This document shows, piece by piece, positions 35,701 to 54,939 of a stretch of 64,000 nucleotides of DNA (its first letter is position 1; each line of letters begins with the position of its first letter). The DNA lies in contig JBAZQK010000005.1 in assembly GCA_041645215.1 (NCBI GenBank), positions 23,562-87,561 on the forward strand, in the 5' to 3' direction. The notes beneath the pieces were generated by a model that was not told the DNA's origin, did no database searches, and saw nothing but the letters and a program-made list of their open reading frames with translations. Origin of the DNA: Patescibacteria group bacterium. GTDB lineage: Bacteria; Patescibacteriota; Patescibacteriia; Veblenbacterales; UBA10138. The position numbers and the translations under genes are program-made.

Positions 35701-35824
35701 CTTGTTAAATAAGATAAAATAGCGTTTAGGGTGTATGATGGATTGTTAAATCAAAATAAACAGTGGATAATATAAATAGTTGAACCAAAAAAGTTTTTTA
35801 AAAACATATATAAGGAATCTAGTC

Positions 35825-37435: not shown

Positions 37436-37589
37436 AAAAATCTGCCAAGCATCGCGCTTGGCAAGTCAAAAATAAAGGGTTCATTCAGGTGTTAATTCTC
37501 ATACAGTTTTCTATAATTGATTACTGCGAGATTTAACACCTTATTTTTTTATTATTCTTATCTTTTTTCATTTTTCCAATCAAGCAATT

Positions 37590-37672
37590 ACTTCCATACT
37601 TCCCAGTATCAAAGTAATTGACGATTTTATAATTATTATGATTTATGCTAAGGTAACTTGTTAAATAAGACA
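37590..37672. repeat. Dispersed hairpin element copy (no GC insert)
   Basis: Near-identical to 35618..35700. Confidence 0.75.
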
Positions 37673-37875
37673 AAATAGCGTTTAGGGTGTATGATGAATT
37701 GTTAAATTAAAATAGACAGTGGATAATATAAATAGTCATTCTGAAGCTGATGTTCATCGGCTGAAGAATCTAAAGCGAATAATCAAAATGTTACAGATTT
37801 TTCGCTTCGCTCAAAATGACAATAAAAAAGTTTTTTAAAAAAGTTAATAATATCAAATAAATAAAAGGTGACAAA

Positions 37876-39462: not shown

Positions 39463-39597
39463 AATTTTCTGGTGTCATTCTGAAGCCCTCCTTAAGAGGG
39501 CTGAAGAATCTAATAAAATAATGGTTTAGGTGTTAGAGATGCAGTACTCATAATCAGTATTCGCTCTAACACCTTATTTTTTATCGCGAACTCTTTT

Positions 39598-39700
39598 TGA
39601 CAAATACTTCCATACCCACGCACCAGCCCGACCAAGTCGGGGCGGTGCGGGACTTCGCTTCCCAGTATCAAAGTATTGGTCGATTTTATAATTATAGATC
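39598..39700. repeat. Dispersed hairpin element copy carrying a GC-rich hairpin insert
   Basis: aaatacttccataCCCACGCACCAGCCCGACCAAGTCGGGGCGGTGCGGGACTTCGCttcccagtatcaaagtattggtcgattttataatta. Confidence 0.75.
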
Positions 39701-39998
39701 CAATATGCCATTGACAAGGGTATATTTTAGAACTATAGTAAAGTGTTAAATCTATAAAAATAGTTCATACTATTAAATAGTCCCGTTGTTGTTTTGAGAA
39801 GTTAGTCATTGTGTAGTTCTTGTCTGTCATTGCGAGGAAGTCGATTCATATCGGCTGACGCGGCAATCTCATTCTTCTTAAACCAATAATAAAGTGTCAT
39901 CCTGCTTGCCCCGCCTTGGCGGAGGAACAAAGTGAAGGATCTAACAAAGTTTTTTAAAAAAGTTAATAATATTATAAACAAACTATAAAGGTGATAAG

Positions 39999-41588
39999 AT
40001 GAAACGATTAATTATTTTAATCGTAATACTTGGTTTAGTTTATTCTGAACCGGTAATTGGTCAATGGACCAAAGTAACTCAAGGCCAGTTTAAGGGCCTT
40101 CAAGATGTATCGTTTGCCGACGCCAACAACGGCACTGCTGTTGCTGACCTTAGTACATACCGCACCACTGATGGCGGCCATACTTGGTCAGTTTATCCAG
40201 ACTGGAATATGATTTGGAAATCATACACCTATGTTCATTTCTTGGATAATCAAGTCGGTTGGATACTAGGCTATGACGCGGGTGAGCCAGGCTACTTTTT
40301 CAAAAGTATTGATGCTGGCAAAACTTGGCAGCAAGTTGCCAATCCGGTTAATGGATTAATGTACAAAATGTTCTGGTTAAATGCCACTGTTGGTTATGCT
40401 TTTGGCGCCACGCGCGGCATCACTTTCCGTGGCGATACTACCGGCACTAATGTCGGCTATGTCTGGAAAACAACTAATGCTGGTACCACCTGGACCGCGG
40501 CCGCAGTCGGTAAGCCTCGTTGGGGTTTTAATGATATGTGGATGCAGCCAAGCGGAAAGGGTATATTAATTGGCGGGTATGTTATGTATTCAACTTCTGA
40601 TTTTGGTAATTCCTGGCAAAAGAAAAATTTCCTTCTTCAACCTAATGAGATATTAAAAAAAATATATTTCTTTAATGAGAAAGATGGATTGATTTTTTCT
40701 TTTAAGGCAGAAAATGATGGTTCATATACTAGGTTATATAAGACAAATAACGGTGGTATAACCTGGCAATTGTGGTCGGAAATTAGTAAGTTTTATATAG
40801 CTTTTATGAGTCCGGTTTGTGTGGTTAATGTTAATAATATTGTACTATCAGGTATTTATTATAACTCAATAGATACATTAGATTATCATATAAAACGTTC
40901 TATTGACGGCGGTAAAACCTGGCAAACTGAATTAAGGAATTTTGATAGCAACGATTATATGCAGACCATCAAAAAGTTCGGTAATACTTATTGGGGTGTT
41001 GGCGCGCAAATTTGGCGGTGCGATAACGTACCTCCAATATTCACCATTAACATTGGCGATTCAATAGCTTATGTTGATTCGCAGTATACTCAAGCTTTAA
41101 AAGCTGTGGATGTAGATGGTGACCAATTAACATTTAGGTTGCTAGGTGCTCCTCAATTTCTGTCTGTGGCTGATAGTTATGTAAAAGGAATTCCCCGGTC
41201 TACTGACATTGGCAAATATGTTATAAAAGTTGAAGTGTCAGACGGCAAGGGTGGAAAAGATACTTTGTCTTACAACCTGAAAGTTGATTTCGCCACAGGT
41301 GTTGAGGACGAATTAAGTATTCCAACTAAGTTCTCCTTAAGCCAAAACTATCCTAATCCATTCAATCCAAGTACAACTATTAGTTATTCAGTTCCAACTT
41401 CCTGCCAAGTTCGTCTAACGGTTTTAGACATACTTGGCCGAGAAATCGTTACACTAGTTAACGAGTATAAAGTTGTTGGCACTTATGAAGTTAATTTCTC
41501 CGCCAACAATTTACCTAGCGGTATCTACATCTACCGCTTAATCGCTGGTCAGTTCTCACAAACCAAAAAAATGACACTCATAAAATAA
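39999..41588 (+). CDS. Secreted BNR/Ycf48-like repeat protein with T9SS C-terminal sorting domain (paralog 4)
   Basis: About 85% identical to paralog 3 by eye; same signal peptide and C-terminal NYPNPFNPSTTISYSVP...YIYRL. Confidence 0.7.
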   Translation: MKRLIILIVILGLVYSEPVIGQWTKVTQGQFKGLQDVSFADANNGTAVADLSTYRTTDGGHTWSVYPDWNMIWKSYTYVHFLDNQVGWILGYDAGEPGYFFKSIDAGKTWQQVANPVNGLMYKMFWLNATVGYAFGATRGITFRGDTTGTNVGYVWKTTNAGTTWTAAAVGKPRWGFNDMWMQPSGKGILIGGYVMYSTSDFGNSWQKKNFLLQPNEILKKIYFFNEKDGLIFSFKAENDGSYTRLYKTNNGGITWQLWSEISKFYIAFMSPVCVVNVNNIVLSGIYYNSIDTLDYHIKRSIDGGKTWQTELRNFDSNDYMQTIKKFGNTYWGVGAQIWRCDNVPPIFTINIGDSIAYVDSQYTQALKAVDVDGDQLTFRLLGAPQFLSVADSYVKGIPRSTDIGKYVIKVEVSDGKGGKDTLSYNLKVDFATGVEDELSIPTKFSLSQNYPNPFNPSTTISYSVPTSCQVRLTVLDILGREIVTLVNEYKVVGTYEVNFSANNLPSGIYIYRLIAGQFSQTKKMTLIK

Positions 41589-42023
41589 ATTATTTTTAAT
41601 AGGTGTCATTCTGACCCCGTCAGACGAGGGAAGAATCTAATAAAATATCAATATATCTTCGAGGAGGTCATTCAGTACTCTATAATCCAGTACTCCGGCC
41701 ACCTCCTTTTAATTTAATTTTAAATCAGCAACTGCTTCAGTGCTTCGCAGCGCTAAAGCAGTTGATAGGTAGGAGATGATAATTATAACTCCAACATTGA
41801 CAGGGTTTAGACGAATCTATAATTGATTCCTCGTCTAAATCCTTTTTAATTTGGCTGTAATAAGCCATTTTTGTTAAATATGCACAATTTGAATTTGCCA
41901 GATTTGTTTTTTTATTATAAATTAAATATGTGCTTGTGGGCGCAAGCCCCGTTCAGCTAAGGATTTCCTAAGCTGAAGGCAAGCACATAACAACACCCCG
42001 CCTACGCGAGGTGTTTTTATTGT

Positions 42024-42491
42024 TCATTCATCGGCAATATTGTCAGTATATAGCTTTTGTGGCTCGCCGTGTTTAAGTTTTGAATAAGGCATTACACTCC
42101 AGAAAGTAATATTACCATCGCCAACCCGCCTCAATATGACTCGAATTTTAATTTGTTTTTGTCCGACTATTGCCACCAAAGCCCAATACTGAACTTCTTT
42201 GGTAAGGGATAGCCCGTCTCGTTTAGATTTTTTACCAATAATGATAAGGCTTTTTCGGTATTCTTGTACCGTACCGGATTTTTCTATTACTTTAAAAGCC
42301 AGCGGCAATAAACTGAATTTTAGCAGTTGTTCTTTTTTGTTTCTTTCCCGACGAGCGGAAAATTGTAAATGATGCAAACCGTCGGAATTAAGAATTATAT
42401 TAGTTTCAAAATAAGGATTATAAATACTATTTCGTGATTGAAAGAAGTTTTTAGCAATCGTTTTCTTTTCATTGAAATACGTGATGTCCAT
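42024..42491 (-). CDS. Hypothetical protein (island gene)
   Basis: 155-aa ORF, AT-rich, flanked by about 50-bp direct repeats at 41818-41870 and 42548-42595. Confidence 0.4.
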   Translation of the reverse strand: MDITYFNEKKTIAKNFFQSRNSIYNPYFETNIILNSDGLHHLQFSARRERNKKEQLLKFSLLPLAFKVIEKSGTVQEYRKSLIIIGKKSKRDGLSLTKEVQYWALVAIVGQKQIKIRVILRRVGDGNITFWSVMPYSKLKHGEPQKLYTDNIADE

Positions 42492-42590
42492 ATTTTTAGT
42501 TTATCAATTTTATAACAAAATGCAATCTGGCGGCGACCCTGAAGATCTATAATCGATTTCTCGTCTAAACCCTATTTAATTTGGTTGTTA

Positions 42591-43061
42591 TTAATGTTTA
42601 TCAGAAAGGACAGTTAGAGCGTGAGCTATCAAAATCTCAATGACCTTTTTGTCCGAATTATAGCAAGCTATAAAATCATCAACCCGCATAAGACTTCGTT
42701 CAAACGCGTCTTGGCTGGGTATGAAGTCGCTCAATCGGCAATCGCGGGAGGTATAAAACAACATTTGTTTATCATTCCCCTCAAACTGCAGAGTGGCGAA
42801 GGGAATCGCCTGACCATCTATTATAACGCCTGATTCTTCTTTTACCTCTCGCTGTAAGGCCGAGAGTAGGTTAGTATCCCCTGGCTCAACATGTCCGCCT
42901 GGTACATCCCAGCCTCGCTCATTCCGAGTTGCAATAATCTGACCATCTATAAAACCAAGCAAAAATACTGCGCTTACCGATTGTTTTTGAGGCAGGTGGT
43001 TCTCATCAATATACTGGATATGCAATTGGCCCAGTGTAATTTTTTCCAGTGGAGTAATCAT
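42591..43061 (-). CDS. Nudix hydrolase
   Basis: Nudix box GGHVEPGDTNLLSALQREVKEESG. Confidence 0.75.
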   Translation of the reverse strand: MITPLEKITLGQLHIQYIDENHLPQKQSVSAVFLLGFIDGQIIATRNERGWDVPGGHVEPGDTNLLSALQREVKEESGVIIDGQAIPFATLQFEGNDKQMLFYTSRDCRLSDFIPSQDAFERSLMRVDDFIACYNSDKKVIEILIAHALTVLSDKH

Positions 43062-43199
43062 TATTTCTTTCCCATTTGATTTAGTTGATTCAAGTCCTTA
43101 TCTTATTTATCTACGATCAACTGTTATTATATTATCATTTTACTTTTTATTCAAAACCAGTCTTTTTACCCTATAGGTGTTTTTTAATTTAAACGAATT

Positions 43200-43275
43200 A
43201 GTGCAAATACTTCCATACTTCCCAGTATCAAAGTATTTGTCGATTTTATAATTGTCATGATTTATGCTTAAGAAT
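43200..43275. repeat. Dispersed hairpin element copy overlapping the 3' end of the Nudix gene
   Basis: gtgcaaatacttccatacttcccagtatcaaagtatttgtcgattttataattgtcatgatttatgcttaagaatc; supplies the last 8 codons and the stop of the 43255..43785 gene. Confidence 0.75.
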
Positions 43276-43785
43276 CTCTTTATGCATTTCTGTGGTAATT
43301 GAGTTGCACCAATTATCAGGATTATCGTTTTTGTCAGCCAGGTATTCATCAAAACTAAGCCACCGCGTAGCTTCAATTTCGCCATCTTTAAAATTAAATT
43401 GAGTTGATGCTTGGTTTAAATAAAAAGCCAACATAACAGTTAGGTGTTTGTAATTTTCGCTCCTTTCTTTCCGCCAACAGGCTAGCCGACCATCATTAAG
43501 GTTTAGTCCCAGTTCTTCGTTTATTTCCCTGGCAACATTTTGTTCAAAGTTTTCCCCCTTAGCCACGTGCCCGCCAAAGTAAGTTTGCCATTTATTGGGA
43601 TTACCCTCGTTGTTAGTGGAGCGCTTGGAACAGAGAATTTTTCCATCAGGATTAATTACCCAAATATTGGTAACAGCATGCCAAATTCGGTATGGTTTTT
43701 GGTGTGCCTCGGCGCGGGTATGAGGTTCTACTGGGTTGCCGTTTTCGTCAAAGCAGGCTAGTAGTTCTGACGTATCTTTGGACAT
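43255..43785 (-). CDS. Nudix hydrolase
   Basis: Nudix box GGHVAKGENFEQNVAREINEELG. Confidence 0.75.
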   Translation of the reverse strand: MSKDTSELLACFDENGNPVEPHTRAEAHQKPYRIWHAVTNIWVINPDGKILCSKRSTNNEGNPNKWQTYFGGHVAKGENFEQNVAREINEELGLNLNDGRLACWRKERSENYKHLTVMLAFYLNQASTQFNFKDGEIEATRWLSFDEYLADKNDNPDNWCNSITTEMHKEILKHKS

Positions 43786-44072
43786 GATGTTCTATTAGTA
43801 ATCAGATACTATGAATTATAACATGAAAATTACAAACCCAAATTCTGCGAGATGGTCATACAGTACTCTTATTTAGTACTCCGACCACCTCTTTTTAATT
43901 TACCCTTGGCCTTGATTGTTTTGGTATTTATGCTAAAGTAACATGTTAAGTAAGGCAAAACCATTTTTTAGGAGTATAGTAAAGTTAAATTAAAAAAGAG
44001 TGGTTGAAATGTAATTATAAAGAAATAAATAAAGCTTTTTAAAAATTTGTAAACAATCTCAAGGGGTATGTC

Positions 44073-45710
44073 ATGGAAAATAATAAGAAAACAGTAGTAT
44101 TAGTTACCCCACCGTCGCATACTCACCGTACAGCCGAAGAAAACCTGGGAATTGGCTATTTAGCCTCAAGTTTGAGAGCTAAAGGTTTCCCAGTGGTAAT
44201 TATAGATGCTTGGTTATATAACTATCCAATAAATATTCTAGTGGAGAAAATATTGACGATAAAAAATATTCTTTTTGTCGGCATTTCTTGTTATCGGTCA
44301 TCTTTGGATGACGTTGGAAATGTTATAAAGCAACTTAGACCGCTTGGTTATAATGGTGTTGTTACAGTTGGTGGATTTGGTCCAACTTTTCATGATTCCG
44401 ATTTTCTTTCTGTTGGTGTGGATGTTGTGTTAAAAGGAGAAGCGGAAGATTCAATAGTTGAATTAGCTAACTTATTAAATAATCGCAATTATCAAAAAAA
44501 CAACTTATCTAAAATATCTGGAGCATCTTGGTTAGGCCAAGCTGGACAAATCAACCGCACTAATCCCATTAAGGCTGATCATTTAGATTCCTTGTTCTTT
44601 CCAGCGAGAGATACTATGGCAATGAATTTACAAATGAAAAATCCAGCTCATCTTGTTACCAGCCGTGGTTGCACTTCTAATTGCTTGTTTTGTTCCATAA
44701 TCTCGTTTGAGAGACTGACAAAAAATAGGGTTACCTGGCGACAGCGCAGTATAGGCAACATAATTGAAGAGATAAAATATCTTTTTAACGAATATGGCAT
44801 ATCTACCTTTAAAATCGTGGACGATAGCTTTATAGAAGAAGGTAGAGATGTGGTTTGGACGGAAACTTTCCTTAATGAGTTGCGCAAAAATAACCTTAAA
44901 ATTCGATTCCGCACTCAGGTAAAAGCGAACGTTCTAACCAGTGAGTTAGTTGTTTGCTTAAAAGAAGCCGGTTGGTTTTCGACCAGTGTCGGTATTGAAA
45001 ATTTTGCTGAGACGGCCTTGCGTCGGATGAATAAGTCTTCTAGTCTTGAGCAAAATTTAAACGCCTTGGCTATGCTAGAAGAAAACGGTATTTACGTAGT
45101 CATGAATCTGATCCTTTTTGATCACAGCACGACTTGGTCCGAGTTAAAAGAAAATCTCTTTTACTTAAACAAGTTTAGCTGGCCGGTCATTAAGGGTTTA
45201 TTTACGGAAATGTACGCAGCCGAAGGTACGGCTTATTCCAGATTGTTGAAAAAAAGGGGCGAGCTGCTACCCAATAGTAATTTCATGAATAGGCAGTATA
45301 ATTTAGTCAATCATGATGTGGGGGTGATTTATACTTGTTTAAAGAAATGGCATAAGTCCCATTCAGCCGTATATGATCACGCTATAAACGTAATTGCCGC
45401 GCCTAAAAACTTGCCAGATTATGGTTATCAGAAGTATTTCAGGGTTTATCGACCGCTTTATGATTTGGATTTGCAGTTTTTTGCCAAGTTAATTAGTTTA
45501 CTAGAACAGTCTGCTCATAAACAACTGCCGCAAGCCCTGGAGTTTACTAATAACTTTATAACAAATACAAAACAAATTTTCGCCACAGTGGAAGGGGAAG
45601 TAACAGATTTAGATTTAGACTTTGGTATTTCTTACCAAGCCGAGTCTAATCCTTTTTTACACATCCCAGGAGATAGAAATGGAAAATCTCATAGAAAAAA
45701 TACCTCCTAA
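44073..45710 (+). CDS. B12-binding domain radical SAM protein
   Basis: N-terminal Rossmann-like B12-binding region (VVLVTPPS...GISCY...VTVGGFGPT); CxxxCxxC cluster motif TSRGCTSNCLFCS. Confidence 0.75.
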   Translation: MENNKKTVVLVTPPSHTHRTAEENLGIGYLASSLRAKGFPVVIIDAWLYNYPINILVEKILTIKNILFVGISCYRSSLDDVGNVIKQLRPLGYNGVVTVGGFGPTFHDSDFLSVGVDVVLKGEAEDSIVELANLLNNRNYQKNNLSKISGASWLGQAGQINRTNPIKADHLDSLFFPARDTMAMNLQMKNPAHLVTSRGCTSNCLFCSIISFERLTKNRVTWRQRSIGNIIEEIKYLFNEYGISTFKIVDDSFIEEGRDVVWTETFLNELRKNNLKIRFRTQVKANVLTSELVVCLKEAGWFSTSVGIENFAETALRRMNKSSSLEQNLNALAMLEENGIYVVMNLILFDHSTTWSELKENLFYLNKFSWPVIKGLFTEMYAAEGTAYSRLLKKRGELLPNSNFMNRQYNLVNHDVGVIYTCLKKWHKSHSAVYDHAINVIAAPKNLPDYGYQKYFRVYRPLYDLDLQFFAKLISLLEQSAHKQLPQALEFTNNFITNTKQIFATVEGEVTDLDLDFGISYQAESNPFLHIPGDRNGKSHRKNTS

Positions 45711-46833
45711 TGAGAAATTAAGCATAGAAAATATCGGCTGGACATTAGGTAACGATTGTCCTTATAGATGCAATCAATGTTACAGTCTTACTGCCAGGTT
45801 AAAAGGTAAAGACTTGGAAAGCAAACACGTTGATAGAATAGTTGACCAATTAAGCATAAACAAGATAAAGACAGTTAATTTAGGTGGCAATGAGCCAATA
45901 TTCACTAACGGTTTGGATGTTAAAAAGACTAAATTGCCTTATATTATTAAGTCTTTAGTAGATAAGAACATCTTGGTCGGCTTAACCACGGCTGGTGTGA
46001 CACTTCAACACCTGATCAGGTATTATGGCGACTACTTTTTACTGCTTAATGATGTTGATGTAAGTATTGATAGTCCTTTTAAATGGGAACATGATAAAAA
46101 CAGGGGAGCTCAGTTGTTTGATTCGGCTATATGGGTCGCCAATATGTGTCAGGCTCAGGGGATTGAGCACACTTTGGTAATGTGCGGTATGAATTGGAAT
46201 CTCTCAGAAAGTCATTTGCAAGGCTTGATAAATTTAGCCAAAGCAACGGGTAGTAACTTGAGAATAAACTACTTGAAACCGATTGAAGAAAAACATTTGG
46301 ATATTTTTCCAAGTGCGCGACAATATTATGAATCGGCACAATACTTGATTGACAGATGTAGTATAGTTGATTTGGGTGAGCCATTACTGTCCTCGGTTTA
46401 TTCTGATTTGGAAAAAGGGTGTCCTTGCGGTACGAAATCTTTTAGAATTCATTCCATCACCCCTGATGGCAAGGTGCCGGTTAGCCCCTGCGTTTATATG
46501 CACGATTATCGGTATGGGGACTTACTTAAAGACGATTTGATAGATATCATCAACTCAAATCAATTTAAAGCCTTTCGTCAAAGACGAAGTAACCCAGCAA
46601 ACATTCCAGGATGTAATTGCTGTGAACACTTAAATAGTTGTCGTGGTGGTTGCGCTGCCCGTTCCAGTTTATTTCATAAAAATAAAAATATATTAGAAGT
46701 GAAAGATCCTTATTGTTTAAAGGATTATACTGAAACAATTGTGGGTTCGTCACTTATTTCTGATGTTAATTTTGGGCAAAAATCATTGGTACATAGAGAT
46801 TATTTGTGTACCCTTATCTTATCGCCTAAGTGA
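45679..46833 (+). CDS. Radical SAM protein with SPASM C-terminal domain (maturase-like)
   Basis: CPYRCNQC radical SAM motif; C-terminal Cys-rich SPASM-like region (CPCGTKSF...CVYMHD...GCNCCEHLNSCRGGCAARS); start 6 nt after GGAGA and overlapping the upstream gene by about 30 nt. Confidence 0.75.
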   Translation: MENLIEKIPPNEKLSIENIGWTLGNDCPYRCNQCYSLTARLKGKDLESKHVDRIVDQLSINKIKTVNLGGNEPIFTNGLDVKKTKLPYIIKSLVDKNILVGLTTAGVTLQHLIRYYGDYFLLLNDVDVSIDSPFKWEHDKNRGAQLFDSAIWVANMCQAQGIEHTLVMCGMNWNLSESHLQGLINLAKATGSNLRINYLKPIEEKHLDIFPSARQYYESAQYLIDRCSIVDLGEPLLSSVYSDLEKGCPCGTKSFRIHSITPDGKVPVSPCVYMHDYRYGDLLKDDLIDIINSNQFKAFRQRRSNPANIPGCNCCEHLNSCRGGCAARSSLFHKNKNILEVKDPYCLKDYTETIVGSSLISDVNFGQKSLVHRDYLCTLILSPK

Positions 46834-46899
46834 TAAAACAATGTTATAATTAAATGAGGAAGTTTAAGGCTTCCTCATTATTATTTTCTCATTAAATTT

Positions 46900-47244
46900 A
46901 TGGTAACCCAGGCCAAAAATTTTCTTAATAAAATTGTTAAAGTGAAGATTGATAGGCCATTAGGTGCCAAGCACCCTAAACATGATTTTATTTATGAAGT
47001 TAATTACGGGTTTGTGCCGGGTACTTTGAGTTCTGACCAAAAAGAATTGGATGCTTATGTTTTAGGAGTGGATGGGCCATTGGAAGATTTTGAGGGTAGA
47101 TGTATAGCAGTTATTCATCGTACCAACGATGATGATGATAAATTGGTAGTTATAGCGCCAAATTCTCCAAATATGTCAGACGAAGAAATAATGAAAAGGG
47201 TGAATTTTCAAGAGCAGTTTTTTAAGTCTCATATTATTAGGTAA
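46900..47244 (+). CDS. Short inorganic-pyrophosphatase-like protein
   Basis: NYGFVPGT and LDAYVLGVDGP resemble the family I PPase NYGFIPxT / DGDPLDVLV motifs; only 114 aa. Confidence 0.45.
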   Translation: MVTQAKNFLNKIVKVKIDRPLGAKHPKHDFIYEVNYGFVPGTLSSDQKELDAYVLGVDGPLEDFEGRCIAVIHRTNDDDDKLVVIAPNSPNMSDEEIMKRVNFQEQFFKSHIIR

Positions 47245-47307
47245 TTGTTCTTTGTAATAAAAATAAATGGCCTCCATTAAATGGCGGCCATTTTATTAAA
47301 TATGATT

Positions 47308-48204
47308 TTATTTAATCATGAAATCGGGTAGATATTCGAAGTGAGTACTTTTGTTAGTAACATGTTTCTTTTGTTCACGGCAGTTACATTTTATGCCTTT
47401 GATTTTAGAAAGTTTGGGTAGAGCGGCAAGAAATATATCAAACGTCTTTTTTCTGCCAGTAATGATGTTGTTATCAATACATGTGCGAGCCAAAGGATCT
47501 TGCGCTAAAAAACGTGCTCTAAGTTTTCTATCATCAATCGTAGCCGCTAATCCAACATAATGACATCCAGCTTCTCTGGCTAGTGTTGCCTCTATGTCAG
47601 CGGTTTGACCGACAACATCCCATCTGTTTTTTGCATAATAATTTAATTCAGCTTCTGTTTCAATGCGAGGATAACCATGAAAGCAGACGTATATACCTTT
47701 TTTGTGCACTTTAAAGGGTATAAGCTTTGTTGATTGTATTAAGACATCCGTGGCTTCAGCACAAAATGGTTTAAGCATATCAACGTTTCTAAAGCCAGTG
47801 TCCATGTTTCTTGTTTGATCATAACCACCCATGCCGACTAAATCGTTTAGGATGTATACATCGCCAGCCTGGCTGTTGGGCTTGATTGAACCACAAGTAA
47901 ACGTTCCAACAATCGTTTCTATACCCATACTTGAAAGTGTTTCTTGTGTAAGGAGGAAATTAATTTTTTGTGACGTAGATCTAATTCGATCAAATCTTCC
48001 ATATATGATAATAAATGGAATACCCGCATGTTTAGTTAAAAAACAGCGATTGTGGATGCCGATTTTTGTTTCTACTATGATGTGATTATACGGGTTCTTA
48101 TTTAAGAACCAGTCAGGTCTAGCAATAATAGCGACCTTAGTTTTGAATTCCTTGCTGGCTTGGGCAAGTGACTCAAAATTTACGTAAAGACTTTGACTTA
48201 TCAT
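47308..48204 (-). CDS. PNP/MTAP-family nucleoside phosphorylase with Cys-containing C-terminal extension
   Basis: GTFTCGS and VCFHGYPRIETEAE resemble MTAP/PNP phosphate- and ribose-binding regions; extra C-terminal tail ...KCNCREQKKH. Confidence 0.6.
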   Translation of the reverse strand: MISQSLYVNFESLAQASKEFKTKVAIIARPDWFLNKNPYNHIIVETKIGIHNRCFLTKHAGIPFIIIYGRFDRIRSTSQKINFLLTQETLSSMGIETIVGTFTCGSIKPNSQAGDVYILNDLVGMGGYDQTRNMDTGFRNVDMLKPFCAEATDVLIQSTKLIPFKVHKKGIYVCFHGYPRIETEAELNYYAKNRWDVVGQTADIEATLAREAGCHYVGLAATIDDRKLRARFLAQDPLARTCIDNNIITGRKKTFDIFLAALPKLSKIKGIKCNCREQKKHVTNKSTHFEYLPDFMIK

Positions 48205-48205
48205 A

Positions 48206-48832
48206 TTAACTCCTTTGTATAGGTATTACTTGAGAAATTATTGACAAGCATTCATTGATTGAGTTTTTTTCTGTATCCAGCATTAAGTAATTTCTATGCA
48301 ATCTAGTTACATGATAGATCAATCGTTCTTGCATAGTTGAAATCAAATCTGGTTTATTGAAAAACAAATGATCAATTTCAGTACTATTGCTGTTATCTTT
48401 AATTCTTTTGAGTATAATGTCTGGATTGGCTTGTAAAATAATAGTGAGATGAGGATTGATCAATAAGTTTCTTCGCAAATATTCATCAAGTAATAAAGAA
48501 TCAGCGTTTAGGTTGTGAATTTCTCTGAAGGTTGTTATTGATAAATCATATCTTTCTTGTACAACTGTTTCTCCTCTAGCAATACTCGGCAGAATAGAAT
48601 CACTTGTATCAAAAATGCAATCAGCCCAGTAGAAGGCAGTTGAATAACCAAGATCAGTTATTTCTTTTGATTTGACTTCGCTGGAAAAAGGGGAATTGCT
48701 CAAAGCGCCTCGTTTGTGTCGGATAATTTGTTTGCTATTGTTTCTTAATAGTTTAACTAACTCAATAGCCAGAGTCGTTTTTCCGCATTTAGGAGGAGAC
48801 TCAAAGACTATGAATAATCCTGGATTTTTCAT
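48206..48832 (-). CDS. Thymidylate-kinase-like P-loop (d)NMP kinase
   Basis: Walker A ESPPKCGKTT and DRY-like VVQERYDLS motif; 1-bp gap from the phosphorylase gene suggests an operon. Confidence 0.55.
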   Translation of the reverse strand: MKNPGLFIVFESPPKCGKTTLAIELVKLLRNNSKQIIRHKRGALSNSPFSSEVKSKEITDLGYSTAFYWADCIFDTSDSILPSIARGETVVQERYDLSITTFREIHNLNADSLLLDEYLRRNLLINPHLTIILQANPDIILKRIKDNSNSTEIDHLFFNKPDLISTMQERLIYHVTRLHRNYLMLDTEKNSINECLSIISQVIPIQRS

Positions 48833-49032
48833 GTCATTACCTCTTATTTAGTTTGTAATATACAATTTCAATTTAATTGATTTTGTTATTGTGTTTAGTT
48901 TTTGTTACTTTTTGTTTATCATATCTTAGTATTATTTGAGGTAAAGTCAAGCCTTGCTTTTTTTCTGTTAATTTGCTAGAATATTTTGAATAAATAAAAC
49001 TAAAAAAGAATATTAAAAATAGAGGTATAAAA

Positions 49033-50295
49033 ATGAAAGAAAAAATAACTTATGGTCTTGATTTTGGAACTTCCAATACGGCCATTGTGGCTAATTATAA
49101 GGGAATTCTTAGACCAATCCCCTTGTCTTCTGATGGCAGTTTGATAACTCCAACCGTATTGTATTTTCCGCCGGATGGCAGAGTGTACAAATTCGGAGAT
49201 GAGGCCGTTAAAGAATATCTCGCCCGAAAAATGAAAGGCAGATTTATGCAGTCGCTTAAATCGTTTTTACCAAGTGAGTCTTTTTCTGGAACTTATATCT
49301 CCGGTTTTGGGCACAGGTATCTGCATGACTTGATTGCCCTTATATTTTCCGAGGTTAAAAAAAGAGCCGACATTCTGATTGGTGAGAACATAAGATCGGT
49401 AGTTATCGGTATACCAGCTAAATTTGTTAATGAATTAGACAACTCTTCAAGAAATTTAGCAGAAGAAAGATTGCGCATGGCCGCTGATATGGTTGGTTTT
49501 AAAGAAGTTAATTTTATTTTAGAGCCAATAGCCGCGGCTTATTACTACGAAACTTTATTAAATTCATCGGAAACTGTTTTGGTTGGTGATTTTGGCGGCG
49601 GTACTACAGATTTCACTATTATGAATCTTTCTCCAAATGGTAATAAAAAAATTGACCGCAAGGACGATATTTTGGCAACCAGCGGTATACCCATAGCCGG
49701 GAATAACTTCACTTCGGACTTAATGCGCAACAAGTTGCTTAAATACTTTGGCCAAGGTAGCAAATTTAAGTCTTGGGACAAGTGGTTAGAAATGCCCGTT
49801 CATATTTTACAAATGATATGTAAATGGGAAAATTTAGCCTTTATGAGGACTCCGGAATACCGCAAGACCATAAATATGCTTCTCAATAAAACAGATGATT
49901 ACGATGGTATATCAAGATTGCACACTCTAATAGAAGATAATCTTGGTTATACATTGTTCCAATCTATAGAAAGAGCCAAAATTGAGTTGTCGGGAAATGT
50001 TGTATCAAAGATATTGTTTTCGGAAAGCAACATTAAAATTGACGAGGAGGTGTCTAGAGAGGAGTATGATTATTTGATAGGTTATATGTACGAAAAGATA
50101 GATGAGACTATACAAGAAATGTTAAAGGTCTCATCAAAAAATCCGAAAGATATCGATGCGGTATTCTTAACTGGCGGAACTTCTTTTACTCCACTGATAA
50201 AAGATTATTTTACTAAGAAGTTTGGTAAAAATAAGATTAAAAGTAAAGATAATTTTACCGATGTTGCCAACGGTTTGGCCGCTTCGATGGTATGA
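49033..50295 (+). CDS. Hsp70-family ATPase, nucleotide-binding domain only (YegD-like)
   Basis: Phosphate 1 GLDFGTSNTAIV, phosphate 2 VLVGDFGGGTTDFTI, and adenosine motif VFLTGGTSFTPLIKDYF; no substrate-binding domain. Confidence 0.7.
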   Translation: MKEKITYGLDFGTSNTAIVANYKGILRPIPLSSDGSLITPTVLYFPPDGRVYKFGDEAVKEYLARKMKGRFMQSLKSFLPSESFSGTYISGFGHRYLHDLIALIFSEVKKRADILIGENIRSVVIGIPAKFVNELDNSSRNLAEERLRMAADMVGFKEVNFILEPIAAAYYYETLLNSSETVLVGDFGGGTTDFTIMNLSPNGNKKIDRKDDILATSGIPIAGNNFTSDLMRNKLLKYFGQGSKFKSWDKWLEMPVHILQMICKWENLAFMRTPEYRKTINMLLNKTDDYDGISRLHTLIEDNLGYTLFQSIERAKIELSGNVVSKILFSESNIKIDEEVSREEYDYLIGYMYEKIDETIQEMLKVSSKNPKDIDAVFLTGGTSFTPLIKDYFTKKFGKNKIKSKDNFTDVANGLAASMV

Positions 50296-50361
50296 AATGA
50301 TTTCTAAAAATTGAACGGGACTTGAGAAATTGATTTTAATCAACTCAAGTCCCTATTTATT

Positions 50362-50525
50362 TGCCTGCGATTAGTGCAAATACTTCCATACCCACACACC
50401 AGTCCCGTCTGACGGGACCAGCCCGACCAAGTCGGAGCGGTGCGGCCTGCCCGCCTTGGGCGAGGACTTCGCTTCCCAATATCAAAGTATTGGTCGTTTT
50501 TAATTATCACAATTTATACTTAAGA
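50362..50525. repeat. Dispersed hairpin element copy with a longer nested GC-rich insert
   Basis: gtgcaaatacttccataCCCACACACCAGTCCCGTCTGACGGGACCAGCCCGACCAAGTCGGAGCGGTGCGGCCTGCCCGCCTTGGGCGAGGACTTCGCttcccaatatcaaagtattggtcg... Confidence 0.75.
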
Positions 50526-50639
50526 ATTTCCCTATATGTTTCCGCAGTAAAGGGTTGTCGCAGGACAACCCTTATTAATTGATTGCATGCATTTGACATA
50601 TTTTTTGTATTGTATTAGGATATAGAAAAATAGTTCTTT

Positions 50640-50970
50640 GTAAGAAATCTAAAAATCAGTGACCAGGAATAGTAGGCTATTTAAGTCTAGCCGAGAGAGG
50701 GGAGAATAGTGTGAACTCCCTCTAGACCAATAGTTCGAATGGCCCTGCGAGATGTAAGCCGAAATTGGCTGACTTTAGCCAAAAGTAGTCTTTACCGGGA
50801 TTTACCCGCCGTAACCATGGGTTAGAACGTGTTGCCCCAAGCAAAGCGTTCTGAAAGCGTTCTCCGCCTCGGCGGAGAGAATAAAGGTGGTACCGCGAAG
50901 GTTGATATGACCTCCGTCCTTTAAACAGCATAGCTTGACTATGTTGTTTGAGGGATGGGGGTTTTTTGTT
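50640..50970 (+). promoter_or_regulatory. Candidate T-box riboswitch leader (tRNA-sensing antitermination element)
   Basis: T-box signature AAAGGTGGTACCGCG at 50882-50896; terminator-like hairpin aaacagcatag..ctatgttgttt plus T-run at 50920-50966; Stem I-like distal region with CTAG..GAGAGA..AGTGTGA..CTAG at 50686-50724; TTGACA at 50593; GC hairpin 50553-50577 upstream. Confidence 0.5.
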
Positions 50971-51037
50971 TAGCTCTTTAACAACTATATAGAATGTAAA
51001 AACAAATTATAAAAATAAAATAATAAGAGGTGTAGTT

Positions 51038-53593
51038 ATGCAAGCAAAAACATTTGAAGTATTAACTGTGTCTTTAGACCAATGTTTAATTGAGGGCCCT
51101 AGTCGTGTTGGCATTAAGGCTTGGCGTCTAGCGCAGTTAGACAGTTATGGTTATAAGGTTCCACCAGCCTTGATTATCCCGGCTGATGAGGTTGTTCGTA
51201 TTTGGAAAGATGGGCAGCTTATAATATCTGACGAAATCGTAAGTGATTTGTGGCATTACAGTTGTAAAAGATTAGAGGCAGGTAGTTTAATTGTTCGTAG
51301 TAGTGGACAAGAGGACGGTGAAAAATTATCTTTCGCTGGGCAGTTTAAATCTATAACTGATGTAAATTCAGTGGAGGAATTTAAGGAAGCTCTGCGTAGT
51401 TGTATAGCTTCTTCAGAGTCTGGTTCAATACAGAATTATAGTAAGGTTATGAATGGCAAAAATTACAGCGAGGGATATTCAGTAATGATAATGCCCCAAA
51501 GAGATTGTGTTTTTTCAGGGATTTTATTTTCGGAGGTGCATGTCAATGGCAACGAATCTGATCTTATCGTTTTGCAAGTTACACATGGTAATAACTTTGG
51601 TTTAACTTCAGGTTCAGAGTCTGGAGATATTCTGTATATTGACAAGTTAGATGGTTCAATAATATGCAGTATACCGCAAAAAAGAAAAGTTGCCGGATTT
51701 GATTCCGTAACCGTTGAGAGACTGTATAATATGGCGTTGGCTCTTGAAACTAAGTTTGGTTTTTCAGTTGATTTAGAGTGGGGGGTAATGCTTGATGGAA
51801 CCATTGAACTTTTTCAAGTGCGGCCAATTACTACCCTTAATAGCCCAGATTCATCCAATGTTCGTTTAAGGAGCATAATACAGACAGATTCCTTAATGAA
51901 AGCATCTTTGCTTAGTTTAAAAGACAGGCATATATCATTGGATGTTAATTACTGGAGTGACCAGAATATCGCTGAATTGATTACAGACCAACCTTCACGT
52001 ATGGCATTTGGTATATTTACTTACATATTTGCTCACGGTGACGGTGCAATTAAAATTGGCCGTAATCAAATGGGGTATGATATAGGCGATGAATTGACAG
52101 ACGGTTTTTTTGAGCTTATAGGTGGCCGACCGCGTTGTAGTATCATACACGACGCTCTAACCTATAGGGTGAAAGGAATACCACTGGACGATTATGTTAG
52201 TGGATTTATATCTCGTTATTTAGATAAAATTAAAAATAACGTACAATACGCTAACTATCCAGAGGTGGTGTTATATGAACAAAATCCAGCGCAAGATTCG
52301 CTTATTGAAATGTTTGGTAGTGAAAAGGGAGAGCAGTATGCTAAATATTACCAAAATTTTTTCGATAGAGTTAATCAGCTTGAGAAAACAGTGGTAGAGG
52401 AATTTAAATTATCTTTTGAACCAAGTTTTATTAAGTATATTGAAGGTAAAAGAGATGATATCGCCGGATTAGACTCTTCAGATTTGGGAGAGCTAGTGAA
52501 CTATGCGCAATCAATACTGGATCATTTGAGAACAGTAAGTTGTGTAATGTTTGTAAAGATAGCAAGGCTAGGATTCTTTGCTTATGCCCGTTTACGGGAG
52601 CTACTCAATGGCGAATTTGGGGAAAACAAAGGCAGACATCTTCTCGATCAAATGACCGCCGGACTGGAAGACGACTCATCAATGTTATTTAACGTTAGAC
52701 TTGCCCAGTTAAGAGATGAAATTGTCGACATCGAGTCGGTACTGTTAGAATTCGGACATTTGGGACCAAACGAATTGGAGATAGCCAATCCTAGATATCA
52801 TAATCAAGTTGATATACTTAAGAAATTATCTCAAAGGATTCAAGGAAATCCAGCTAACGAATTACATAATCGTGCGGTCGAGGCCGATAAGGTAACTAAT
52901 GAGGTCGCAAGCTCGTTGGATGAGTCTTTGGCCGCTAAACTGCGCAAGGATGTTAAAATTGCTAGACGTTATCTTGCTCTTCGCGAACGTGCTAAATATT
53001 ACTTTCTCATGGAATATGATTGTTTGCGTCAGGCATTGGAAAAAATTTCTTCAGAACTAAAATTGGAGCATAGGTTAATATTCGAACTGGATCCGCGTGA
53101 GTTGTCTCTCTTGGTTAGTGATATTCCCCTGGCATTATTGCTGATGAGAAAGCGCTACCAAGAAAGGGATATCCTGGCTAATATTCATATACCTCCAGTG
53201 ATAACACTTAATAACTTGGGAGACATCGGCCAAGATTCTTATGATCCTACTGAGAAAATCATGATGGGTATAGGTATTACGCCAATAGTAACGACCGGTG
53301 AAGCCATAGTTGTTTTAGATCCTAACGATACGGAAGGCCTATCAAGATTAAAGCCAGGTATGGTGCTTGTTGCCAAGACTACCGACCCTACTTGGGCACC
53401 GATTATTGCTGCTGTAGGCGGTAATGGTGCTTTGGTGACTGAAATAGGCGGACCGTTGGCTCATGGGGCAATAGTGGCACGTGATCTCGGTATAGCTTGT
53501 GTACAAAATGTTCCCATGGTAACCAAAAGAATACAAAATGGAAATATTGTTAAAGTTGATGGTAAAAATGGAATAGTTACAGTTTTATCTTAA
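51038..53593 (+). CDS. PEP-utilising dikinase-like enzyme with rifampin-phosphotransferase-like domain order (N-terminal ATP-grasp/PPDK_N, C-terminal swivel phosphohistidine domain)
   Basis: N-terminal RVGIKAWRLAQL (PPDK_N VGGK-like); C-terminal PEP-utilising mobile domain GEAIVVLDPNDTEGL...GGPLAHGAIVARDLGIACV; no TIM-barrel PEP-binding domain. Confidence 0.7.
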   Translation: MQAKTFEVLTVSLDQCLIEGPSRVGIKAWRLAQLDSYGYKVPPALIIPADEVVRIWKDGQLIISDEIVSDLWHYSCKRLEAGSLIVRSSGQEDGEKLSFAGQFKSITDVNSVEEFKEALRSCIASSESGSIQNYSKVMNGKNYSEGYSVMIMPQRDCVFSGILFSEVHVNGNESDLIVLQVTHGNNFGLTSGSESGDILYIDKLDGSIICSIPQKRKVAGFDSVTVERLYNMALALETKFGFSVDLEWGVMLDGTIELFQVRPITTLNSPDSSNVRLRSIIQTDSLMKASLLSLKDRHISLDVNYWSDQNIAELITDQPSRMAFGIFTYIFAHGDGAIKIGRNQMGYDIGDELTDGFFELIGGRPRCSIIHDALTYRVKGIPLDDYVSGFISRYLDKIKNNVQYANYPEVVLYEQNPAQDSLIEMFGSEKGEQYAKYYQNFFDRVNQLEKTVVEEFKLSFEPSFIKYIEGKRDDIAGLDSSDLGELVNYAQSILDHLRTVSCVMFVKIARLGFFAYARLRELLNGEFGENKGRHLLDQMTAGLEDDSSMLFNVRLAQLRDEIVDIESVLLEFGHLGPNELEIANPRYHNQVDILKKLSQRIQGNPANELHNRAVEADKVTNEVASSLDESLAAKLRKDVKIARRYLALRERAKYYFLMEYDCLRQALEKISSELKLEHRLIFELDPRELSLLVSDIPLALLLMRKRYQERDILANIHIPPVITLNNLGDIGQDSYDPTEKIMMGIGITPIVTTGEAIVVLDPNDTEGLSRLKPGMVLVAKTTDPTWAPIIAAVGGNGALVTEIGGPLAHGAIVARDLGIACVQNVPMVTKRIQNGNIVKVDGKNGIVTVLS

Positions 53594-53687
53594 AAACTAA
53601 AATAATCTTGTAAAGGGAGTCTATTTATGGACTCCCTATTTTTATTTTCAATTATTTGTTAATATTACTTTATAATTAAAGTAGTTT

Positions 53688-54380
53688 ATGGATTCCAATA
53701 GCATACAATTTTTCTTTATTCGTCATGGTCAATTGGTTGAACCTTACTTGAATCATTTAGTTATGGATTATTCTACTTTAAGTGATTTAGCTACGAGCGC
53801 ACTTGACCCTGGTATTAATAAGAACGCCATTGATTTATTTAATAGACAAACGAGCGGGCTTGATTTTTCGGCTGTTTCACGAATCTATTATAATAATTCC
53901 GGTTTTCAATCACGCCGTTCATTGGAATCGGCTAAAATTATGGCCGAAGTTTTTTTAAGGCGCTATAAAAAAGAAATAACTCCGGTTGGTTTGTCGGAAC
54001 TTAAAGAGGTTCGTTTTGATGTTCGGCAGCTAGTGAGTAAAGATGATTTTAAAATCAATGGTATGCCAGCCATTAGGACAGCTTTGTATAGTTCTTTTGT
54101 TAACGGCGGTAGCGCCGAGTCAATAGTTGAGCTAGAAAAGCGAATTGGCGTTATTAACAGCGTCGCGGCCAGGCGTGCTCTTAAAAGAGAAAGCGTATTG
54201 TTTGTTACTCATGATTTTTTTATGCGGGTGTTGGAGGTTTATATAAATCGTGCCGATAGGTTGCAAGGAGTAACGATAAATGATTTTGAGAAAACCTCGC
54301 TTAATTCGTATTTTTCTGGTTTTTTAACCACTACTGAATTTAATAGTCTTACGCGCTGGGGTTCAGATATATTTAAATAA
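53688..54380 (+). CDS. Histidine phosphatase superfamily (PGAM-like) protein
   Basis: N-terminal FIRHGQ (RHG catalytic motif) and distal VTHDFFMRV. Confidence 0.55.
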   Translation: MDSNSIQFFFIRHGQLVEPYLNHLVMDYSTLSDLATSALDPGINKNAIDLFNRQTSGLDFSAVSRIYYNNSGFQSRRSLESAKIMAEVFLRRYKKEITPVGLSELKEVRFDVRQLVSKDDFKINGMPAIRTALYSSFVNGGSAESIVELEKRIGVINSVAARRALKRESVLFVTHDFFMRVLEVYINRADRLQGVTINDFEKTSLNSYFSGFLTTTEFNSLTRWGSDIFK

Positions 54381-54431
54381 ACAATATAAACCTGAAAAAT
54401 ACCAAGGCGGTATTTTTAACAGCGGAGCTAT

Positions 54432-54848: not shown

Positions 54849-54939
54849 AAATTCTCCCCAATGTTTAGCCGGGGGAGTTTTTAGTTTAGCTTAACCAGCG
54901 CTATTTGATAAATTATGGTAAGCCATTTATAGTGTTAAT

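Follow-up and report, generated by a model that had tools for sequence, protein, structure and literature searches.

The 64,000-nucleotide stretch analysed here (the window; contig JBAZQK010000005.1 of assembly GCA_041645215.1, positions 23,562 to 87,561 of the forward strand, from a Patescibacteria group bacterium) encodes two adjacent radical S-adenosylmethionine (SAM) enzymes, referred to below as A and B, among genes resembling those of nucleotide metabolism. In window coordinates, the two genes are:

44073..45710, + strand: gene A, B12-binding radical SAM enzyme, 545 aa (Pfam, profile and AlphaFold (AF2) model)
45679..46833, + strand: gene B, radical SAM/SPASM enzyme, 384 aa (Pfam, NCBIfam, alignment and AF2 model)

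An earlier interpretation made from the letters and open reading frames (ORFs) of this DNA, the sequence-only reading, had described the pair as a 545-aa B12 radical SAM protein with the motif CTSNCLFC, translationally coupled to a radical SAM protein with a cysteine-rich SPASM domain. Both domain assignments and the coupling were borne out. Its values of 403 aa for the second protein and about 30 nt for the overlap belong to different start codons: translation from ATG 45679 gives 384 aa and an overlap of 32 nt, so that the overlap stood, whereas the length of 403 aa requires TTG 45622 and an overlap of 89 nt. ATG 45679 is most likely the start of B because AGGAG lies 8 nt upstream, because the public gene call begins there and because it fits the N-termini of homologues; the upstream TTG is a possible alternative. 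The overlap arises because A carries a lineage-specific tail of 16 residues past the conserved ...NPFL end of its family.

Domain searches against Pfam and NCBIfam, with their curated cut-offs, placed a B12-binding domain (PF02310) at residues 23–131 of A and a Radical_SAM domain (PF04055) at residues 195–360, with the cluster motif CTSNCLFC at residues 200–207 (cysteines C200, C204 and C207). The AF2 model (predicted local distance difference test score, pLDDT, 92) has a cobalamin (Cbl)-binding Rossmann domain, a radical SAM barrel and a C-terminal four-helix bundle (helices 414–517). With a Rossmann Cbl domain followed by a barrel bearing CX3CX2C, A belongs to the class B (cobalamin-dependent) radical SAM enzymes, and its predicted fold matched OxsB, TsrM, MgmA, CysS and TokK. 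A profile of the A family ranked OxsB first among solved structures (127 bits, 9e-36), spanning the Cbl and radical SAM domains, followed by MgmA (69 bits), CysS (52), TokK (42) and TsrM (32). OxsB was also the top match of the model in a Foldseek comparison with solved structures (E 1e-24, TM-score 0.73 over the query, methyltransferases 0.56–0.60), in a superposition that takes in the C-terminal helix bundle of A. By profile, fold and helix bundle alike, A was closer to OxsB than to the methyltransferase branches.

The alignment begins at residue 21 of A, which corresponds to residue 137 of OxsB, and nothing in A corresponds to OxsB residues 1–136 (domain I). The lower-axial N186 of OxsB, below the cobalt, aligns to Y74, an invariant tyrosine of the A family. 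A does not have the four-domain architecture of OxsB and AlsB and was therefore not filed as a member of that family; OxsB/AlsB is nevertheless the family nearest to A, and A probably works in a related way. None of the 21 NCBIfam matches of A reached a named B12 radical SAM equivalog (BchE, HpnR, HpnJ, BzaD, the RiPP C-methyltransferase TIGR03975, PhpK, ArsL and others), all being far below their cut-offs, and the best score was to BchE, with 93 bits against a cut-off of 481. Full-length homologues of A, 40–50% identical, were numerous.

B contained Radical_SAM, Fer4_12 and SPASM domains, with two SPASM models above their cut-offs (PF13186, 36.6 against 21.5 bits; TIGR04085, 36.9 against 27 bits). 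The CX3CX2C motif occupies residues 27–34 (C27, C31 and C34), and the SPASM cysteines C248, C250, C271, C312, C315, C321, C325 and C346 form the full set of the CX9-15GX4C...CX2CX5CX3C...C motif, which places B among the SPASM proteins. All were invariant in an alignment of 44 sequences, as were two further cysteines, C227 and C377, the latter within a C-terminal LVHxDYLCT motif. A variant type, B', found in about 30% of related loci, is devoid of four of the SPASM cysteines. The AF2 model of B (pLDDT 89) matched SuiB, anSME, PqqE, CteB, BlsE, MoaA and viperin about equally, with BlsE at rank 11, and no close solved relative was found, the sequence matches in the PDB not exceeding 29 bits and the structural neighbours being generic SPASM enzymes. 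On account of these generic fold matches and the lack of a PDB match above 29 bits, B constitutes a distinct SPASM subfamily. An exhaustive profile search, with clusters at 50% identity as representatives, found 138 representatives of the B family at E<=1e-30, and homologues of B were 52–60% identical.

The genes and features flanking the pair were as follows:

46853..46879, + strand: terminator-like hairpin aatgaggaag..cttcctcatt with T-run, between B and PP (folding z -3.6)
46900..47244, + strand: mini pyrophosphatase-like protein (PP), 114 aa (PF00719, residue mapping)
47308..48204, - strand: methylthioadenosine phosphorylase (MTAP)/purine-nucleoside-phosphorylase (PNP)-like protein, 298 aa (PF01048; TIGR01694 below cut-off)
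48206..48832, - strand: divergent thymidylate-kinase (TMK)-like P-loop nucleoside monophosphate (NMP) kinase, 208 aa (PF02223)
49033..50295, + strand: YegD-like Hsp70 nucleotide-binding-domain protein, 420 aa (PF00012)
43255..43785, - strand: Nudix hydrolase, 176 aa, divergent from A (PF00293)
42591..43061, - strand: second Nudix hydrolase, 156 aa (PF00293)

The sequence-only reading had found no ORF of 60 aa or more adjacent to the pair, which was wrong: PP starts 66 nt past B on the same strand, and the 176-aa Nudix hydrolase ends 287 nt upstream of A on the opposite strand. PP has a truncated family I pyrophosphatase (PPase) fold, its homologues being 60–70% identical, and the members of its family measure 110–137 aa, against about 175 aa for family I inorganic pyrophosphatase. 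The residues examined were, in Escherichia coli numbering, E20, K29, E31, R43, Y55, D65, D67, D70, D97, D102, K104, Y141 and K142; PP keeps the equivalents of Y55, D65, D70, D102 and K104 and is without E20, Y141 and K142. At the position of D67, a metal ligand in the E. coli enzyme, 42 of 48 family members have Glu and the window protein has Lys (residue 48), the sole Lys in the alignment, while the D97 position is mostly Asn. With both residue set and length incomplete, PP was not assigned to the family I inorganic pyrophosphatases, and NCBIfam PPase models gave it about 21 bits against a cut-off of 200. The residues that it keeps and lacks suggest that PP is probably a phosphohydrolase other than a standard inorganic pyrophosphatase.

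The hairpin that the sequence-only reading had placed after the pair is real, and it recurred at the B–PP junction of the two closest relatives, L089 (positions ~10147–10175, z -5.1) and L090 (~12666–12693, z -5.9), with the stem AAUGAGGAAG..CUUCCUCAUU and U-run kept although the proteins are only 52–70% identical to those of the window. A more distant relative, L004, has a different GC-rich hairpin with U-run at the same junction (~5192–5227). This suggests a terminator or attenuator conserved inside the cassette.

The remaining neighbours matched their Pfam families without reaching a functional assignment. The MTAP-like protein scored 68 bits on PF01048 (cut-off 25), and its best PDB matches were MTAPs at about 61 bits, but it stayed below the MTAP model TIGR01694 (80 against 275 bits). 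The TMK-like protein scored 45 bits on PF02223 (cut-off 27), at most 26 bits to TMKs of the PDB and 54 bits on the dTMP kinase model TIGR00041, under its cut-off of 83. The YegD-like protein reached 211 bits on PRK11678, under the cut-off of 331. No NCBIfam equivalog cut-off was reached by A, B or the cassette genes around them in the window. The second Nudix hydrolase had only weak matches in other loci, and whether it belongs to the cassette is uncertain.

To follow these genes beyond the window, a scan for A with one genome per species yielded 80 loci, 77 of them with a full A gene, which form the base of the co-occurrence counts. The ORFs of these loci were called, searched with the window proteins and clustered by BLAST, and neighbours were counted within 6 kb of A. 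The counts depend on this ORF calling and are lower bounds, the crude ORF filter failing on high-GC DNA; they are raw frequencies beside A, not set against a genome-wide background. B adjoined A in 70 of the 77 loci, and the pairing is therefore not a matter of chance. PP was present in 52 loci, a Nudix gene in 12 and one or the other in 60. TMK-like genes occurred in 35 and any P-loop kinase in 58, and B, a pyrophosphohydrolase and a kinase were found together in 51 loci. The MTAP-like gene was counted in 21 loci, rising to 40 when an amidohydrolase or an adenosine deaminase (ADA)-like gene was accepted in its stead. The YegD-like gene (16 loci) accompanied A in Patescibacteria, Woesearchaeota, Alpha- and Gammaproteobacteria and Magnetococcales.

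Gene order differed by lineage, while the same roles came back (> and <, direction of transcription; APH, aminoglycoside phosphotransferase; GMK, guanylate kinase; MTase, methyltransferase):

Patescibacteria and Woesearchaeota: YegD< A> B> PP> (amidohydrolase<) TMK<
Enterousia: Nudix> A> B> ADA-like> TMK< YegD>
Gut Bacilli: LysR> B'> PNP> deoxyribosyltransferase-like> HprK-like> A> PP> UvrD-like>
Gut Clostridia: His-phosphatase> B> A> SAM-MTase> unknown> TMK> kinase> GMK-like< PP<
Nocardia: AMP-ligase< A> B> PP> APH-kinase> HprK-like> PNP> ThyA-like> deoxyribosyltransferase-like>

Several slots take interchangeable enzymes. PP alternates with Nudix, and in Enterousia-type loci, which have no PP gene, a Nudix gene overlaps the start of A; a supposed B–Nudix fusion in Enterousia was rejected, the Nudix gene lying upstream. 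The MTAP-like gene alternates with a 5'-deoxyadenosine-deaminase-like amidohydrolase or an A_deaminase-like protein. In the two closest relatives (70% and 52% identity), the order is A B PP amidohydrolase< TMK<, and the amidohydrolase, for which the best model was 5'-deoxyadenosine deaminase (146 bits, below cut-off), fills the slot of the MTAP-like gene of the window. The cassette also occurs on plasmids: the Streptomyces clavuligerus plasmid pF1D35B carries A, B, an APH kinase and an HprK-like protein, and the Enterococcus plasmid pM190262 carries A, B, PP, a 961-aa adenylation–peptidyl carrier protein of the non-ribosomal peptide synthetase (NRPS)-like kind and a major facilitator superfamily (MFS) transporter. 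Lineage-specific extras were, in Nocardia, a ThyA-like and a nucleoside-2-deoxyribosyltransferase-like gene, an APH kinase and an AMP-binding ligase and, in Clostridia, a histidine phosphatase, a SAM methyltransferase and a guanylate-kinase-like protein. In the Nocardia loci L046 and L040, at 15901–17476, the thymidylate-synthase-family gene is followed by the nucleoside-2-deoxyribosyltransferase-family gene.

Several B-like proteins were fused to other enzymes. P0363, a core member of the B family, is an in-frame fusion to the mini-PPase, as seen on inspection of its sequence, and P0473, a divergent protein of the B' type, carries a fused Nudix domain whose Nudix box is intact. Among lower-scoring B-like proteins, P0459 and P0463 are fused to a SAM methyltransferase, and P0492 to an NAD-dependent sugar-nucleotide epimerase/dehydratase domain. 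To judge by these domain combinations, the fusions link B with the hydrolysis of phosphoanhydrides and with the chemistry of nucleotides or sugar nucleotides, and they are consistent with PP and Nudix filling one role. The 719-aa protein P0036 was not used as an A–B fusion: it joins the C-terminal region of A straight to the second half of B, without the radical SAM core of B, and is probably a deletion or an assembly artefact.

The recurrence of nucleotide enzymes, the interchange of slots, the fusions of B and the place of OxsB as nearest solved relative of A lead to the reading favoured here, namely that A and B stand at the centre of a conserved cassette for small-molecule chemistry, which acts by remodelling a (deoxy)nucleoside phosphate, and this reading draws further on the lineage extras, which are nucleoside-pathway enzymes, and on precedents in the literature. 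A rough probability of 0.55 is attached to it. The gene context thereby supports what the sequence-only reading had mentioned second, a modification of cofactors or nucleosides.

The oxetanocin A system of a Bacillus megaterium plasmid (OxsB with the HD phosphohydrolase OxsA) resembles the cassette in that OxsB is the nearest solved relative of A, across the Cbl-binding domain, the radical SAM barrel and the C-terminal helical bundle, and in that a B12 radical SAM enzyme is paired with a dedicated phosphohydrolase. It differs in the kind of hydrolase, which is an HD-domain protein in OxsA and a truncated PPase fold or Nudix here, in the second radical SAM enzyme, B, nearly always present here, and in A itself, with its missing domain I, its identity of about 18% and Y74 in the place of N186. 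OxsB contracts the sugar ring of deoxyadenosine mono-, di- and triphosphate (dAMP, dADP, dATP) and needs the phosphohydrolase OxsA (PMC13331322). Its homologue AlsB (AlbB) and a second radical SAM enzyme, AlsA (AlbA), are necessary and sufficient for albucidin, and both OxsB and AlsB consume two SAM per turnover and release 5'-deoxyadenosine without S-adenosylhomocysteine (PMC13331322, PMC7074753).

The albucidin locus of Streptomyces albus subsp. chlorinus likewise has two adjacent radical SAM genes, one of them OxsB-like, whose products act together on dAMP and are enough in vitro, two molecules of 5'-deoxyadenosine being released per turnover (PMC13331322, PMC7074753), and a thymidylate-kinase gene nearby (PMC7074753, Table 1). 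However, AlsB is reported with all four OxsB domains (PMC13331322) and A has three of them, B is a SPASM enzyme where AlbA is described as resembling biotin synthase, and the gene order differs. In thmABC, the 4'-thiothymidine locus of Photorhabdus, a radical SAM enzyme is combined with a nucleoside kinase and with an NTPase by which the producer resists its own product (PMC12691670), so that radical SAM enzyme, kinase and triphosphatase make up a minimal set of the same design as here. Compared by description, thmABC has one radical SAM enzyme, for which no B12 domain is reported, and proteins of other families. In its second radical SAM enzyme, its mini-PPase and its set of accessory genes, the cassette differs from every described nucleoside pathway.

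A likeness to the mildiomycin and blasticidin pathways lies in the ThyA-like and deoxyribosyltransferase-like genes of the Nocardia cassettes and in the presence of BlsE among the fold matches of B. The two Nocardia genes, going by the family names, presumably belong to the same two families as MilA and MilB, which make and release a modified cytosine in mildiomycin biosynthesis. Unlike in those pathways, the gene pair is absent from the window and no gene resembling a cytosylglucuronic acid (CGA) synthase was seen.

The route that these parallels suggest would begin with the TMK-like kinase and the two pyrophosphohydrolases, mini-PPase and Nudix, setting the phosphorylation state of the nucleotide. 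A, binding cobalamin and having a [4Fe-4S]/SAM site, would then abstract a hydrogen from the nucleotide, most likely on the sugar, and would either rearrange the sugar via a cobalt-held intermediate as in OxsB and AlsB or methylate it. B, with a predicted three Fe-S clusters, may carry out a second radical step on the product of A, as AlsA does in the albucidin pathway, and the translational coupling of the two genes would fit a direct hand-over of an unstable intermediate. The MTAP-like phosphorylase could clear inhibitory 5'-deoxyadenosine formed by both enzymes or swap the base, a role that a DadD-like or ADA-like deaminase would take in relatives. The mini-PPase or Nudix hydrolase may also hydrolyse the triphosphate of the analogue and so shield the producer, as ThmC does for 4'-thiothymidine. 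The end product would be an unusual nucleoside or nucleotide acting as an antimetabolite. The MFS exporters and adenylation enzymes of some loci suggest a secreted and sometimes acylated nucleoside; the kinase and the weak matches to defence proteins described below may leave room for an intracellular antiviral role.

Several points weigh against this reading. The identity of A to OxsB is only about 18%, the N-terminal domain is missing from A, and B12 radical SAM enzymes of similar fold need not share a substrate. The resemblance of B to SPASM enzymes that modify peptides is as great as to those acting on small molecules, and HprK-like kinases, which 23 loci contain, are seen in presumed peptide systems too. 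A and B were set beside AlsB and AlsA by published description, not by sequence. Nucleotide-salvage genes of reduced genomes could cluster with the pair without sharing a pathway, and the phosphorylase or deaminase could serve by-product disposal alone, which would say nothing of the substrate.

The maturation of peptides made on the ribosome and modified after translation (RiPPs), which the sequence-only reading had put first, would require a B12 methyltransferase and a SPASM cross-linker to act on a precursor encoded elsewhere or too small or divergent to detect. Such clusters (proteusins, sactipeptides, MftC/PqqE systems) do contain B12 radical SAM and SPASM pairs, the same two domain types with the SPASM fold of B; the fold of B matches SuiB, CteB and PqqE, and some loci contain HprK-like kinases. 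A search for small ORFs near the pair, as had been proposed, gave no conserved candidate: when 439 intergenic ORFs of 18–80 aa from 75 loci were clustered, no family recurred within 2 kb of A–B, and the sole recurrences were multiple copies of a single genome and AT-rich ORFs shared by close relatives. ORFs of 20 aa or more were listed over 43700–44100 of the window, and those in 43786–44072, including MLSKAKPFFRSIVKLN, which had been singled out as a candidate peptide, had no counterpart in the other loci. No PqqD domain or RiPP recognition element (RRE) was matched in any window protein tested (Pfam, NCBIfam), and the CX3CX2C motif of B, which begins at residue 27, leaves no space for an RRE at the N-terminus. 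Peptide-maturase models matched B weakly and far below cut-off (MftC 80 against 265, GeoRSP 61 against 400 and ScmE 44 against 400 bits). Unlike RiPP clusters, the window has no precursor, RRE/PqqD, protease or peptide-transporter (ABC exporter) gene among the proteins tested, and the conserved neighbours and the fusions are nucleotide enzymes. A and B are not a peptide-maturation pair, and a RiPP pathway with a hidden precursor is extremely improbable. For genome mining, a B12 radical SAM and SPASM pair by itself is no RiPP signature.

The adenosine-type phosphorylase or deaminase beside the pair in 40 of the 77 loci also bears on C-adenosylation in the manner of MqnE and HpnH, in which a radical SAM enzyme would add the 5'-deoxyadenosyl radical to a non-nucleotide substrate and the MTAP-like, deaminase or ADA-like enzyme would then trim the adenine, as with futalosine and adenosylhopane, towards a cofactor or lipid-like product. 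The amidohydrolase also matches models of the aminofutalosine-deaminase family (93–114 bits), and the hopanoid enzymes HpnR and HpnJ are weakly matched by A. However, such a scheme leaves the NMP kinases, Nudix, PPase, histidine phosphatase, ThyA-like and deoxyribosyltransferase-like partners unexplained, as well as the fusions of B to PPase and Nudix. The cassettes are without lipid or quinone genes, and OxsB is the clear nearest solved relative of A. The probability given to this scheme is very low.

The cassette had a broad distribution. The 80 loci came from Patescibacteria, a Woesearchaeote, Nocardia, Streptomyces, Lentzea, Streptoalloteichus, Pseudonocardia, Bradyrhizobium, Hoeflea, Rickettsiales, Enterousia, a gammaproteobacterium, Magnetococcales, many gut Bacilli, Mollicutes and Clostridia, Paenibacillus and a member of the Muribaculaceae, and thus from the candidate phyla radiation (CPR), DPANN, Actinomycetota, Bacillota, Proteobacteria and Bacteroidota. 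In the Rickettsiales metagenome-assembled genome (MAG) locus L005 (1–9000), phage-like genes, for a head-tail connector, terminase, DnaB and lysozyme, adjoin the cassette; a phage origin was rejected, no A-family match being found in 50,697 phage records or IMG/VR. In locus L002 (Bradyrhizobium sp. I1.7.5), A and B stand alone between transposases and an integrase, near NEL/LRR effector-like and nitrogenase genes, in what looks like a mobile symbiosis-island setting.

Many of the carriers have small, symbiotic genomes, and the frequency of the cassette in Patescibacteria, DPANN, Mollicutes-like Bacilli, Enterousia and Rickettsiales would be explained if it provided a B12-dependent way, independent of oxygen, to make or salvage a standard (deoxy)nucleotide, for example by C-methylation or sugar reduction. 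Classic salvage functions are found among the neighbours (TMK-like, PNP/MTAP-like, Nudix, deoxyribosyltransferase-like), and the mini-PPase, at 60–70% identity, is highly conserved. Yet the cassette is also found in the large genomes of Streptomyces, Nocardia, Bradyrhizobium and Paenibacillus, which have complete nucleotide pathways, as well as on plasmids and beside transposases. The kinase and the phosphorylase are too divergent for the TMK or MTAP equivalog cut-offs, and two radical SAM enzymes would be a high price for a housekeeping step when simpler solutions exist. Clear orthology to a known pathway of primary metabolism, which the sequence-only reading had named as grounds for its own refutation, was not found, no NCBIfam equivalog reaching its cut-off. 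A role in primary nucleotide metabolism thus carries a low probability. One form of it, an alternative thymidylate synthase with A methylating dUMP, is attractive given the TMK-like, pyrophosphatase and deaminase genes but does not suit the large-genome carriers.

The same radical chemistry could serve anti-phage defence, with the modified nucleotide kept in the cell as a chain terminator or polymerase poison. The logic would be that of a prokaryotic viperin with its kinase, the kinase activating the analogue and the pyrophosphohydrolases limiting self-harm. In the PADLOC library, which has no cut-offs, A matched the candidate PDC-M51A (57 bits, 3e-16), the TMK-like protein matched PDC-M51B (30 bits, 9e-8) and the viperin-associated kinase VakA (7e-4), and the N-terminus of B matched pVip (1e-7). 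Both pVip/VakA and PDC-M51 (a B12 radical SAM enzyme and a TMK-like kinase) pair a radical SAM enzyme with an NMP kinase for modified nucleotides, as the cassette would. A kinase suits activation better than export, the patchy distribution, with copies on plasmids and at a site beside transposases, has the look of horizontal transfer, and a UvrD-like helicase adjoins the cassette in 28 Bacillota loci.

The cassette scores, however, are at the superfamily level. A scores more on BchE, the PDC-M51A/B scores do not surpass those obtained with unrelated families of B12 radical SAM enzymes, and the two genes lie about 2.5 kb apart on opposite strands. The pVip matches cover the N-terminal part of B only, and the viperin model NF038283 gave 23 bits against a cut-off of 180 over residues 19–134, with no full-length match. 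No tested accessory gene of the cassette specifically matches a known defence protein, PDC-M51 is itself a candidate on which no paper was found in a literature search, and the MFS exporters and AMP-binding/NRPS-like genes of some loci point to a secreted product. A defence role is considered rather unlikely. A known defence system was rejected, the PADLOC matches being weak only, as was Ophion, a radical SAM defence system with different partner genes. The helicase of the Bacillota loci, UvrD/HelD-like and 725 aa long (L037, 10319–12496), stands beside the cassette in orders of Bacilli and Clostridia and has only generic, GajB-level PADLOC matches; it could be a partner in self-protection or defence.

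Nucleotide remodelling by A and B may belong to a wider picture, which is offered tentatively and as a whole: the A–B–mini-PPase core would represent a large, unstudied B12 radical SAM family that builds a new nucleoside remodelled in its sugar or base, whether oxetane-like or with some other type of ring, spread horizontally among Patescibacteria, DPANN archaea, gut Bacillota, Alphaproteobacteria and actinomycetes and serving ultra-small symbionts as a chemical weapon or as antiviral protection by means of a nucleotide analogue. It would then be the first B12-dependent radical pathway of such a kind assigned to Patescibacteria.

To our knowledge, oxetanocin and albucidin come from the only two OxsB-type pathways known in nature. 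Both products are antiviral or herbicidal nucleosides. If the nucleotide-remodelling reading is true, OxsB chemistry would be widened by a related family with hundreds of members, another radical SAM partner and a new kind of phosphohydrolase, and the cassette would be a possible source of new nucleoside analogues. It would also give a function to genes that RefSeq labels only 'radical SAM protein', that are common in CPR, DPANN and gut bacteria and on which no paper was found in the literature search, and it would mean that radical chemistry on nucleotides, with cobalamin as cofactor, is something in which gut bacteria and the CPR and DPANN organisms with their reduced genomes invest.

Other features of the window were noted around the cassette. 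The GC content is 0.34–0.39 over about 20 kb (36000–56000) containing the cassette and 0.45–0.48 on either side, which is consistent with a horizontally acquired island. Downstream of the YegD-like gene, the following were found:

50650–50924, + strand: T-box leader (Rfam RF00230), 91.3 bits against a gathering score of 93, E 1.7e-20
~50896–50956: terminator-like hairpin, upstream of the dikinase-like ORF
51038–53593: dikinase-like ORF of 851 aa, with PPDK_N and PEP-utilizers swivel domains
53688–54380: 230-aa protein without Pfam match
54432–54848: third Nudix hydrolase, 138 aa

The T-box sequence of the leader is intact, and the specifier codon reads UGG (Trp), followed by C instead of the usual A; such a leader ahead of a dikinase-like gene is unusual for a Patescibacteria MAG. 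The albucidin locus also has a 'pyruvate, phosphate dikinase' beside its TMK gene, from which the idea of the dikinase-like gene as a cassette member started. It was rejected, the gene having no homologue in the other loci and its own T-box leader. The third Nudix gene and the 230-aa protein sit between the dikinase-like gene and proB/proC, bringing the Nudix genes to three within 12 kb.

Upstream of the cassette, four tandem paralogues (33786–41588) carry BNR/Sortilin-like, He_PIG and Por_Secre_tail domains, the last being a sorting signal of the type IX secretion system and unexpected in a genome labelled Patescibacteria. The last two paralogues (37876–39462 and 39999–41588) are near-identical. 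Two tRNA-Ser genes, with anticodons GCU and UGA, lie about 500 nt apart at 21439–22091 on the - strand.

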